DNA from: Piedraia hortae CBS 480.64
Taxonomy: Eukaryota
Length of the DNA: 44,219 nt
Direction of reading: 5' to 3'
Assembly (NCBI GenBank): GCA_010093745.1
Contig: MU006012.1
Location: 56,732-100,950, forward strand
Shown piece after piece: positions 36,836-39,943 of this stretch. The translations under genes were made by a program, and so were the position numbers. Every line of letters begins with the position of its first letter. Within the stretch, counting starts at the first letter, position 1. The notes beneath the pieces are model-generated. The model saw only the letters and a program-made list of their open reading frames with translations. It had not been told where the DNA came from and did no database searches.

Positions 36836-37626
36836 GAATATCTCATTGGCAGCCCGCCACTGTGAAGTCTTGAAGGTATGACCATCTTCTGCCAGGTTTC
36901 GGTTCCTATGGAAGGAAGTCACAGTTGCAACGATATGGATGCTCTATGATGAATGAAAAGCTTGGCAGAGGTTCTTGCAGACTGCAAAGCAAGGAGAAAC
37001 GCTACATCTGATATGGAGAAGTTGTGCTGATTGAAAATACAACATGGAACGGTACAGCGCACACCCACACTAAACGACTAGCTTACCCTACGTAATCCAG
37101 GCTTGCTCAGGGGTGGAGCAGAATGATCTCGACCATGGGGAAGGGGCTTGTGCTAGCCCTTGTGATAAACTATCGCGATCTGGTGGGGCGGTAGGCAAGG
37201 CTATGAACGGTGTAGATCCAGAGTGTCGCTTTCGGAAACCTCGCGATGTGCCGATTCATGTAAGACCAGATGTGTTTGATGGCTGATTAAGTGAGGAATG
37301 TGGCAGCTGGCAGAAGAATCCTTCCTTAGTCATCCAGGAACAGAAGCGCGCCCCCACCAGCAGCCTCAACAGCTTCTGCACTCAGTGCCTTAGTGTAGGC
37401 GCTTCTAGCTGACCAATGTCATTTGCAAGCGTCGAACAGCGCTCTGCAGATCTTAGATCGTTTAGCTCTCGTATTTAAGCACTCCAATGTAGTGGTATCG
37501 GATAAATGTAGGATAATTTGGCTGGCATTTGTCAGATGTCAATGGTGGGGCTCCCATCACGTCGAGCGTAAATAAAAGCTGTCTCCTCACCTTCTACACC
37601 TGCACCTAACAGTAGAAGCATCAATC

Positions 37627-38331
37627 ATGGCTCCCAAGATCGCCATCGTGTTTGTTAGTCTCCCTGTTTACAGCGTGCTGGGCTCCGGCTGACCACAACA
37701 GTATTCCATGTACGGCCACATCAAGACCTTGGCCGAGGCCGAGTCTCAGGGCATCAAGGAGGCTGGCGGCTCCTGCGACATTTATCAGCTGCCCGAGACT
37801 CTGTCCAGTGAGATCTTGACCAAGATGCATGCCCCGCCCAAGGACCAGAGTATCACTATCCTCGAGGACCCTGCTACTCTTGAGAAATACGACGGCATCC
37901 TCTTTGGTATTCCCACCCGCTACGGTAACTTCCCCGCCCAGTGGAAGACGTTCTGGGACCGCACCGGCTCGCAGTGGCAGACTGGTGCTTTCTGGGGCAA
38001 GTATGCGGGCATGTTCGTTTCGACTGGCACAATGGGTGGCGGACAGGAAACGACTTGCATTAGCGCCATGAGTACCCTGGTCCATCATGGCTTCATCTAT
38101 GTCCCGCTGGGATACAAGACTACCTTCCCCCAAATGGCCGACCTCAGCGAGGCCCGCGGTGGCAGTGCTTGGGGCGCGGGTACCTTTGCGGTATGTATCT
38201 CAACAGATTGAGGAATGCCCTACTAACAACAATAGGGTGCCGATGGTTCGCGTCAGCCGTCCCAGAAGGAGCTCCAGATTGCCACTGCTCAGGGCAAGGC
38301 CTTTTACGAGGCCGTCGCCAAGCATGCGTAG
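37627..38331 (+). CDS. PST2: Flavodoxin-like NAD(P)H:quinone oxidoreductase (WrbA/Pst2/Ycp4 family), short isoform 203 aa; exons 37627-37653, 37702-38190, 38236-38331
   Basis: MAPKIAIVF|YSMYGHI, YDGILFGIPTRYGNFPAQWKTFWD.TG, STGTMGGGQETT, GGSAWGAGTFA|GADGSRQPS motifs; canonical introns. Confidence 0.95.
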
Positions 38332-38382
38332 TAAGCGGGGAATTGCCATTAAATCCAGCTTGCTGACTGCAGTTAGATCTAG

Positions 38383-38566
38383 CAAAGATTCGGCTGCAAC
38401 CGCAGCTGGGGCTGGGGCTGAAGCCGCTGCGGCTGGTCCTGGCGCTGGCGCTGCTGGATCCAATACCAGGGCTGCGGAACAGCAAACGTCAACGACACCA
38501 AAGTCTAGACAGAAGAACGAGAGCCAGGGACCATGTGGGCTTCCAGTCAAGTGTTCGGTTATCTGA
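38383..38566 (+). CDS. Alternative last exon of PST2 giving a 264-aa isoform ending in a CaaX box (...GPCGLPVKCSVI*)
   Basis: Donor GTAAGC at 38331, inside the stop codon TA|G; branch CTGAC 38363-38367; acceptor TAG 38380-38382. Splicing gives TAC and an open frame to TGA at 38566. Confidence 0.75.
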
Positions 38567-38919
38567 TAGCCCTATGTAATCCCGTCGTTTTTCTGACGTT
38601 CATCTGTGTCAGCACTCAGGGCCTGCGTCATGCGGAAAGGCCCAGTCCGTCTACGGCCCGAGCCTAGTGGTCCCACTCTGCGGCACACACAGGCGACACT
38701 GACTTCTCTTTTCTCTTCTTCATGCGTTGTTCTCTGTCTACATAGGGCCTATGCAATCCTCTCGTCCATAGTCTCTTGCTTTGAGCCTCTCCCTTGTCTC
38801 TCAACGATACCTCGGCCCCGACCTCTCGTCCTTAGCCTCGCGTCGTGACAATCTATCTTGCCCCGCATCCCCACTACCCCACGCCACACGTCGCACTTCA
38901 ACCATAAGGTCCATCAATC

Positions 38920-39806
38920 ATGGCGGACCCCTTTGATGCCGCTCTGTCAGTTAACACACACTCTCTCCTCCCAAAAGCTAACACAATACCTCCAGTGATC
39001 TCCTCCGCCGTTTACCCCCATCCCGCACCAGCGAGACGCTCACAAAGATCATTTCCCTCCGCCCAGAACTAGAAGAAGACCTCCTCTCTTCCGTCGACGT
39101 TAGTTTAACCTCCCAACGCTGCACCAAAACCGGAAGAGACTATCTCTGCTGCGACTACAACCGCGACGGCACAAGCTATCGGTCCCCCTGGTCCAACGAA
39201 TTCGAGCCCCCTCTACCCGACGCCGACGACGATGATCTCAAACCCAGCGGCCGCATTCGCCGAATGGAAGAGTCCCTCAACTCCGCCATCGACGTCTACC
39301 GTGAGCTCTACTACGACGGCGGAATCAGCAGCGCGTACCTCTGGGCCCTGGACCAAGCGCAGAGCGGCTTCGCGGGTGTAATCCTTCTTCAAAACCGCAC
39401 TCCAAAGGGAGGCGAATGGGACGGAATCCACGTCTTTGAGGTCGAAGAAGCAGCGACAAAACGATCCGCACTATATAAACTCACGTCGACAGTTATTTTG
39501 GATTTGCAGGGTCAGCAGAAGCTGACGGCGGGACCGGCGGTCGAGTTGGCGGGGAATTTGACGAGACAGACGCAGGCGGATATGCAACTTACGGGGTTCA
39601 GGGAAGCGGAAATTGAAAAGTCGCATGTGGCGAATATGGGACGGATGGTCGAGGATATGGAAACGAGGATGAGGAATATGCTGCAGGATGTGTACTTTGG
39701 GAAGGCGCGCGATGTGGTTGGCGATTTGAGGAGTTTGGTTCCGTTGAATGAGGTTGCGAGTGAGAGGGCCGCGCATAGAGATGTTATCGAGAAGATGAAT
39801 CGGTAA
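38920..39806 (+). CDS. CAP2: F-actin capping protein beta subunit; exons 38920-38945 and 38996-39806
   Basis: MADPFDAAL|DLLRRLPP...GRDYLCCDYNRDGTSYRSPWSN...YRELYYDGGISSAYLW...WDGIHVFE...YFGKARDVVGDLRS. Confidence 0.95.
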
Positions 39807-39943
39807 CTAGATCTCAGAATACATATTTCCTTTCCCAGTTTGAGTTCTTGAGATGCTACTTCGCAGAGTTCGTAAAATTTACATAGTGAGAAACCAACTC
39901 GCTTAAAGCATAGTCAAATCATCTACATACGTATCTACACTCT

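Follow-up and report, generated by a model that had tools for sequence, protein, structure and literature searches.

A tandem splice donor at the stop codon of a Piedraia hortae quinone reductase gene may append a lipidation tail that related fungi appear to reach by readthrough

We analysed a 44,219-nucleotide stretch of contig MU006012.1 of the Dothideomycete Piedraia hortae CBS 480.64 (order Capnodiales; assembly GCA_010093745.1, positions 56,732 to 100,950; hereafter the window, in whose coordinates all positions are given), in which a quinone reductase gene on the forward strand carries an intron that starts inside its own stop codon. Two donors, 3 nt apart, are joined to a single acceptor; one junction rebuilds the stop, and the other removes it and leads in frame into a conserved C-terminal tail with a CaaX box at its end. 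We consider it probable that this tandem-donor, single-acceptor intron yields a major 203-residue enzyme together with a minor, lipid-tailed form of 265 residues, and that most relatives of Piedraia reach the same tail by translational readthrough.

In the mechanism that we propose, the last intron would begin within the stop codon with the two donors in GTAGTAAG and end at the one acceptor AG 38376. Splicing from the stronger donor, at 38331, would rebuild the stop across the junction and give the 203-residue enzyme; splicing from the weaker donor, at 38328, would take the stop away and give the 265-residue enzyme with a predicted disordered tail ending GPCGLPVKCSVI. The tail would be prenylated at the CaaX cysteine, the cysteine upstream of it perhaps being acylated as well, and through these lipids a minor share of the enzyme would be held at membranes. 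Relatives hold the same tail in frame behind a putatively leaky TGA CTA(G) stop and would make it by ribosomal readthrough, and Piedraia would arrive at the same low-abundance long form through its tandem donors.

Splice junctions at the stop codon

The three coding exons of the gene (37627-37653, 37702-38190 and 38236-38328) encode 203 residues, and the translation is 100% identical to the annotated protein P0003, named 'benzoquinone reductase [Piedraia hortae CBS 480.64]' by NCBI. The 203-residue protein shares 71-78% identity with proteins named Alt a 7, Cla h 7 or WrbA, other relatives bearing the name flavodoxin-like fold protein, and P0003 matches the Pfam families PF03358 FMN_red (41.4 bits, cut-off 24) and PF00258 Flavodoxin_1 (31.1 bits, cut-off 25). 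Judged by these similarities, the product is a flavodoxin-like fold NAD(P)H:quinone oxidoreductase of the WrbA/Pst2/Alt a 7 family, predicted to carry out flavin mononucleotide (FMN)-dependent two-electron reduction of quinones.

Splice junctions were read from the Logan contigs of a single public run, X1, placed on positions 37300-39900. We treated these contigs as RNA-derived because GT..AG joints and poly(A) loose ends are present in them: each of the four introns that the quinone reductase gene and its neighbour have between them shows a joint, and poly(A) ends lie at 38602 and 39843. At the stop-codon intron the X1 contigs display one acceptor, AG 38376, and the two donors of GTAGTAAG, 38328 and 38331. 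The joint 38330>38377 skips 46 nt and is carried by two contigs at a depth of 10487.8 (side of 24 letters), and the joint 38327>38377 skips 49 nt and is carried by one contig at a depth of 1698.3 (side of 29 letters); both are bounded by GT..AG. The long-form junction thus amounts to ~14% of both by contig depth, a rough figure derived from k-mer depth and short branch contigs of one run.

Donor 38331 joined to AG 38376 reads TA|A, so that the stop is rebuilt and the 203-residue form results. Donor 38328 (GC|GTAGTA) joined to the same acceptor reads GC|A TCT AGC AAA GAT..., by which the stop is lost and Ala-Ser-Ser precede the tail in frame; the long product comprises 265 residues and has GPCGLPVKCSVI as its C-terminal end. 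Since the poly(A) site at 38602 lies past the stop codon of the tail, the whole tail region is contained in both mRNAs. Contig coverage is nil in the bin 38605-38691. A G at position +5 is found in four other donors of the stretch (GTTAGT, GTATGT, GTAAGC and GTCAGT) and is absent from GTAGTA, with which the minor use of donor 38328 therefore fits. The hexamer GTAGTA at 38328-38333 also meets the GYNGYN tandem-donor motif, two GY dinucleotides 3 nt apart, both of which serve as donors in the X1 contigs. In unspliced RNA the stops TAG (38329-38331) and TAA (38332-38334) sit within the tandem donor GTAGTAAGC.

A preliminary description of this locus, made from the DNA sequence, had already read the elements of the intron correctly. 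The open reading frame ends ...CAT GCG TAG TAA (TAG 38329-38331) with GTAAGC starting at 38331, the CTGAC at 38363-38367 is followed by AGs ending at 38372, 38376 and 38382, the three junctions do give TAT TAG, TAA and TAC, respectively, and the TA+C frame opens 60 codons after 38382 (38384-38563) that run to PCGLPVKCSVI* and the stop at 38564-38566. Its core idea, that one gene makes a short Pst2-like and a long CaaX form by means of an intron starting in the stop codon, is supported, but the device is a different one. The description invoked a 6-nt choice of acceptors, and the X1 contigs instead show a 3-nt choice of donors, 38328 or 38331, with acceptor 38376 only. The junction 38331>38382, which it took as productive, is not among the joints listed in these contigs, which are no proof of absence. 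The junction 38331>38376, counted there as 'a stop again', does rebuild TAA and is the major mRNA. The description overlooked the second GT at 38328, 3 nt 5' of donor 38331, which together with AG 38376 also places the tail in frame.

The tail and its stop context in related fungi

The tail is a recurrent feature of the enzyme family. Six of 14 orthologue models, from Phyllosticta (two), Alternaria (three) and Pyrenophora (one), end GPCGLP[AVS]KC[ED][VI]M. A metagenome scan with the back-translated motif GPCGLPxKC found at least 118 loci, with flanks for 80 of them, and 120 oriented matches; the counts that follow for matches and distinct tails are among the matches listed. An exact Cys, three residues and a stop close 102 of the 120 matches. 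A Pst2-like domain lies just upstream (tblastn with P0003) in 88, and all 88 have the CaaX geometry. Another 14 matches have the geometry but no domain match, 13 of these having at most 443 nt of upstream sequence, and the 18 with neither geometry nor domain are chance matches. Because the last 12 residues match GPCGLPxKC plus three residues and a stop behind Pst2-like domains in 88 of 120 cases, the arrangement of the tail is beyond chance.

Within the CaaX box, residue a2 is Ile, Val or Leu in all 88 distinct tails, Val being the residue in Piedraia, and residue X is Leu in 38, Met in 21, Ser in 17, Gln in 8 and Thr, Val, Ile or Ala in one each. The Piedraia box, CSVI, has its Cys at -4 with the stop directly after it (...KCSVI*). 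Eight residues, G, P, C, G, L, P, K and C, do not vary among the 83 tails aligned, the search pattern having fixed all eight. For 33 independent pairs of relatives in frame-blind nucleotide alignments, the ratio of the nonsynonymous to the synonymous proportion of differences (pN/pS) is 0.48 in the tail frame, compared with 1.20 and 1.35 in the two alternative frames, which hold stops in 47 and 69 of 73 tails of relatives. A profile of the tail retrieved 87 proteins at E<=0.001 from the representative library, of which 85 are stand-alone open reading frames (ORFs) of 36-115 residues, as would be expected if a stop normally separates the tail from the enzyme. The Piedraia tail searched against the 'longer' proteins gave no match at E<=10, and a profile search with the 83 tails gave a single match, P0123 (Hyaloscypha).

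Among the loci listed, those nearest to the Piedraia tail are L096, L073, L074, L038, L075, L097 and L026, with which it has a QQTSTxPQ block in common. Compared with the eight best-matching loci, the Piedraia tail is 47-59% identical over 46-59 codons in seven and 37% identical in the eighth (L017), at pN/pS ratios of 0.32-0.51 that the protein-guided alignment biases somewhat downward. On these comparisons we take the tail to be real and conserved, an old feature of the enzyme family.

The distinguishing property of the relatives is the way in which the tail follows the enzyme. Of the 78 distinct loci listed that hold both domain and tail, 73 have no intron and carry the tail in frame directly after the stop of the domain, a count made after classing by eye with an extra intron in L002/L025, L032 and L069; the other five comprise three loci of the intron class and a pair of degenerate copies that share one contig. 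A continuous stop-less frame from domain to tail occurs in none of the 78. The stop of the direct loci is TGA in 71 of 73 and TAA in two, and its context is TGA CTN in 70, TGA CTA in 47 and TGA CTAG in 38, with further conserved bases after the stop, TGA CTN NAT GG, read as Leu-Asp/His/Gln-Gly. The codon CTA accounts for 47 of the 71 Leu codons right after the stop versus 19 of the 477 within the domains that these loci encode; the loci are phylogenetically non-independent. Contigs that resemble mRNA, in which the reductase forms one exact uninterrupted high-scoring segment pair (HSP) of 1002-1327 nt, keep the TGA (L029, L033, L036, L052, L054 and L055), and L063 is like them apart from a one-residue gap in its HSP. 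The preliminary description did not see that related fungi are without an intron here, and that an in-frame TGA CTA stop precedes the same tail in them.

UGA CUA (G) is described in the accessible text of PMC4207609 as a weak termination context that gives enzymes a dual localisation in fungi and animals. The tail of most relatives is most likely made by programmed readthrough of this kind, as the stop context and the conservation beyond it suggest. Piedraia departs from the UGA CUA(G) context, reading TAG TAA before splicing and TAA TCT after it. Selenocysteine at the TGA was rejected since fungi are not known to have the machinery for it. Editing of the stop from A to I, considered in view of the accessible text of PMC13123824, was judged less likely in that genomic and intronless contigs all keep the TGA and the context is that of readthrough. 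One protein of the representative library, P0145, has a Trp exactly at the TGA of the relatives (...AKAHA-W-LDG...); a gene caller's TGA=W code is its most likely source, and the residue is thus no evidence of editing or stop loss. Another, P0195, runs ...AKAH-DGGEDA... into the tail without a stop and may be a spliced or stop-less variant.

A second device is suggested by the five loci whose enzyme ends ...FGA* or ...VGA* (L022, L046, L050, L067 and L072). All five have a GTGCGT donor (G|GTGCGT) 5 nt before the stop, which therefore lies inside a putative intron, and an in-frame acceptor 65-98 nt downstream; four of the five share a GCTAAT branch site, whose A precedes the AG by 14 nt, and a GGAAG|G acceptor 65-75 nt downstream. 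In this class, the short form would arise when the intron is retained and the long form when it is spliced out.

Public gene models deal with the site unevenly. The long models P0073, P0099 and P0038 (Alternaria), P0007 and P0032 (Phyllosticta), P0106 (Pyrenophora) and P0123 (Hyaloscypha) arrive at the conserved CaaX tail through introns that jump the in-frame TGA. At that point the models disagree among themselves, P0073 and P0099 of Alternaria included, and their introns are probably devices of annotation for getting past a readthrough site. The model P0123, from a Leotiomycete, joins ...HILK to ...SETAAV and skips the VSF-stop-LDGSSASGTK seen in L064 and L114. A single metagenome contig (L040/L041) holds two copies of gene end and tail on opposite strands, ~1.5 kb apart; one of them has TGA CTA GAT G minus one base and its tail out of frame, and may be a decaying duplicate or an assembly error.

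Origin of the intron and competing explanations

Most loci of the QQTSTxPQ group have the readthrough layout and end ...KVNFQ TGA CTG CAA GGT, and named proteins of Capnodiales and Mycosphaerellales end ...KVNFA or ...RVNFQ. As the relatives share the readthrough layout, the Piedraia arrangement is therefore the derived state. The intronic segment CAGCTTGCTGACTGCA (38356-38371) aligns with CAACTTCCAGTGACTGCA of the relatives at a local score of 9. Of 2000 dinucleotide shuffles, 24-29 reached that score for L073, L075, L038 and L097, and 105 and 239 did so for the two remaining loci tried. This modest evidence suggests that CAGCTTGCTGACTGCA may be a relic of an ancestral ...TTCCAG TGA CTG CA readthrough context that was intronised, its TGAC now serving as the branch site. 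Tandem-donor splicing thus seems to have replaced readthrough in Piedraia.

Other explanations of the locus deserve weighing against this one. Were the stop-codon intron an ordinary constitutive 3' intron, only the 203-residue protein would matter, the use of donor 38328 would be splicing noise, and the tail a decaying relic of readthrough. The restoration of the stop by the major junction, the loss of the leaky TGA CTA context in Piedraia, and the frequent noisiness of tandem donors, for which the accessible text of PMC1779574 on GYNGYN sites is the background, all speak for such a reading. The tail speaks against it, retaining the eight alignment-invariant motif residues, the CaaX geometry and a QQTSTTP block, and keeping its identity to the best-matching loci in the face of near saturation at synonymous sites (pN/pS as given above). 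The minor junction is moreover in frame, which has one chance in three, and at ~14% by contig depth it stands far above the error level. We regard noise and decay as an unlikely account of the locus. Alternatively, a single donor at 38331 could be combined with a choice among the three tandem acceptors, the tail being opened by 38382 alone (TA+C = Tyr). All three AGs exist, 38331>38382 would be in frame, and contigs drop rare variants, so low-level use is possible; nor can the X1 contigs show the absence of intron retention or of the use of acceptors 38372 and 38382. Two joints to 38377 are nonetheless listed in these contigs and none to 38373 or 38383, the latter being the 38331>38382 splice, a result that cannot prove absence. 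Measured from the branch A at 38366, the distance is 10 nt for the AG at 38376, near the 9 nt found in each of introns 1 and 2, as compared with 6 nt for the AG at 38372 and 16 nt for the AG at 38382, the third in the row. A choice of acceptors is, on this evidence, distinctly improbable.

Readthrough could also still be active in Piedraia at the rebuilt TAA, which would be compatible with a tandem-donor origin of the long form. The rebuilt TAA of the major mRNA is in frame with the tail (TAA TCT AGC AAA), and a stop followed by the tail is the rule in relatives, as the 73 of 78 loci listed attest. The stop is, however, TAA followed by T and not TGA CTA, TAA is found in just two of the 73 direct loci, and UAA is generally the tightest of the stop codons; we put the probability of residual readthrough very low. 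A separate Ycp4-like paralogue may exist elsewhere in the Piedraia genome.

Several considerations weigh against the tandem-donor explanation itself. The nature of run X1 is a guess ('RNA?'), the sides of its junction contigs, at 24 and 29 letters, fall under the 30-31 letter comfort line of the tool, and contig depth is a crude measure of abundance. A second forward frame is also open over most of the Piedraia tail, by which the length of the ORF alone proves little. The Ile at position X of CSVI recurs in just one of the 88 distinct metagenome tails listed, which leaves the efficiency of prenylation uncertain, and the metagenome loci were picked by the tail motif and are phylogenetically non-independent. 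Translation of the minor mRNA into a 265-residue protein, its lipidation, and its targeting to membranes are what we infer from the sequence, as is readthrough in the relatives from stop context and conservation. Even so, splicing from two donors to one acceptor, with readthrough in most relatives, remains the explanation that we favour.

Table 1. Features of the Piedraia hortae quinone reductase gene, in window coordinates.
Feature	Position	Strand	Details
Exon 1	37627..37653	+	ATG at 37627, MAPKIAIVF; joint 37653>37702 in RNA-derived contigs; matches P0003
Intron 1, 48 nt	37654..37701	+	GTTAGT ... CTGAC ... AG; branch A to AG 9 nt; GT..AG joint
Exon 2, 163 codons, flavodoxin-like catalytic core	37702..38190	+	Translation P0002
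Intron 2, 45 nt	38191..38235	+	GTATGT ... CTAAC ... AG; branch A to AG 9 nt; joint 38189>38235 ('cut +1')
Exon 3, GADGSRQ...EAVAKHA	38236..38330 (major donor) or ..38327 (minor donor)	+	Translation and joints
Tandem donor GTAGTAAGC	38328..38336	+	GT at 38328 weak (no G at +5), GT at 38331 = GTAAGC; both joints GT..AG
CAGCTTGCTGACTGCA, holding the CTGAC branch site 38363-38367	38356..38371	+	Local alignment to relatives' stop region, score 9
Acceptor AG in use	38375..38376	+	10 nt past branch A 38366; both joints land at 38377
Last exon	38377..38563	+	3' untranslated region in the major mRNA (after TA|A); Ser-Ser and 60-residue Ala/Gly-rich tail in the minor mRNA; translation P0001
Conserved tail end GPCGLPVKCSVI	38528..38563	+	CaaX box CSVI 38552-38563; second Cys 6 residues upstream; stop TGA 38564-38566
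Poly(A) addition site	38602	+	23-A loose end behind 38602 in one contig; 36 nt past tail stop

The reductase gene is adjoined by a gene for the beta subunit of F-actin capping protein at 38920-39843 on the forward strand (Pfam F_actin_cap_B, 288 bits), for which the RNA-derived contigs show one 50-nt intron at 38946-38995 (GTCAGT...AG) and, at 39843, a poly(A) end. One contig shows a 16-T loose end before 38709, just upstream of the capping-protein transcript, whose contig starts at 38714; this end may stem from polyadenylation of an antisense transcript or from an artefact of the library.

Known systems and meaning for the enzyme family

Programmed UGA CUA(G) readthrough is known to add cryptic targeting signals to proteins of fungi and animals, as set out in the accessible texts of Stiebler et al. 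2014 (PMC4207609) and Schueren et al. 2014 (PMC4359377). The relatives of Piedraia resemble those systems in their TGA CTA(G) context, in the conserved in-frame extension with a localisation signal at its end, and in a predicted low-abundance extended isoform from one gene. They differ in that the signal is a CaaX box and not a type 1 peroxisomal targeting signal (PTS1), and in the longer context TGA CTN NAT GG; Piedraia, for its part, splices instead. The words 'quinone', 'flavodoxin', 'prenyl' and 'farnesyl' are absent from the main text of PMC4207609.

Tandem donors of the GYNGYN (delta-3) type offer the parallel on the side of splicing. According to the accessible text of Hiller et al. 2006 (PMC1779574), four human tandem donors insert or delete a stop codon, two of them in the last intron with different C-termini as the result. 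The Piedraia site is alike in that GTAGTA conforms to the motif and each GT serves as a donor. It is unlike those cases in that the 3-nt choice takes away the natural stop and uncovers a conserved lipidation tail, and in that it seems to have replaced a putative readthrough site of the relatives. Fungi are unmentioned in the text of PMC1779574 ('fung' and 'yeast' occur 0 times). The preliminary description knew of no such switch for a prenylation signal, a view that cannot be upheld: in the available accounts of human OAS1, alternative splicing of the last exon sets the CaaX end and the membrane targeting, the p46 and p42 forms differing by a CaaX tail that depends on the splice acceptor. As far as those accounts go, OAS1 differs from Piedraia in being an acceptor choice set by a single-nucleotide polymorphism, in a mammalian immune gene for an unrelated enzyme and with no link to readthrough.

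The same enzyme family is represented in yeasts. The accessible text of PMC4556627 describes the flavodoxin-like proteins of Candida albicans as quinone reductases that act against oxidative stress at the plasma membrane, and gives Ycp4 of that species a C-terminal extension of ~90 residues ending in a CAAX box; Saccharomyces cerevisiae Ycp4 is stated to be palmitoylated in the accessible part of bioRxiv 10.1101/2023.04.27.538084. In yeasts the two forms are separate genes, Pst2/Rfs1/Pst1-3 and Ycp4, and in Piedraia one gene would make both. The likeness of the Piedraia tail to that of yeast Ycp4 is one of description. In Ustilago and other fungi, alternative splicing yields cryptic PTS1 tails for peroxisomes; there, as proposed here, a minority of the transcripts equips a metabolic enzyme with a targeting signal at its C-terminus. 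The signal is another one in Piedraia, and the device is a tandem donor at the stop codon. Predicted prenylation signals in readthrough extensions, for example in Arabidopsis MT1C, are described in the accessible part of bioRxiv 10.1101/2021.11.09.467898. Among open-access papers and preprints, we found none that links readthrough or alternative splicing to the Pst2/Alt a 7 family. Each of the mechanisms is known in itself, be it tandem donors, readthrough of targeting signals or a spliced CaaX tail.

A wider proposition, which we advance tentatively and hold somewhat short of even, is that the Pst2/Alt a 7 reductase is a conserved two-output gene across filamentous ascomycetes, with a major soluble and a minor lipid-anchored product. 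The devices would be interchangeable: UGA-CUA readthrough as the rule, a stop-holding intron in the ...FGA* class, and in Piedraia a tandem donor derived from an intronised readthrough site. Selection would then keep the ratio of the outputs and not the mechanism, and a conserved two-isoform output maintained by different devices in different lineages would be of broader interest. For annotation, the consequence is that public gene models truncate the protein at the stop or invent introns over it.

The enzyme family is known to shield fungal membranes from oxidative damage, and it includes the allergens named Alt a 7 and Cla h 7. If our explanation is true, these genes present a clear case of a lipid-anchor signal placed behind a stop codon and conserved across many fungi, and they would explain how single-gene filamentous fungi come by a membrane-anchored form for which yeasts have a gene of its own, Ycp4. 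Piedraia would then be an instance of evolution putting alternative splicing in the place of translational readthrough and yet keeping the minor isoform.

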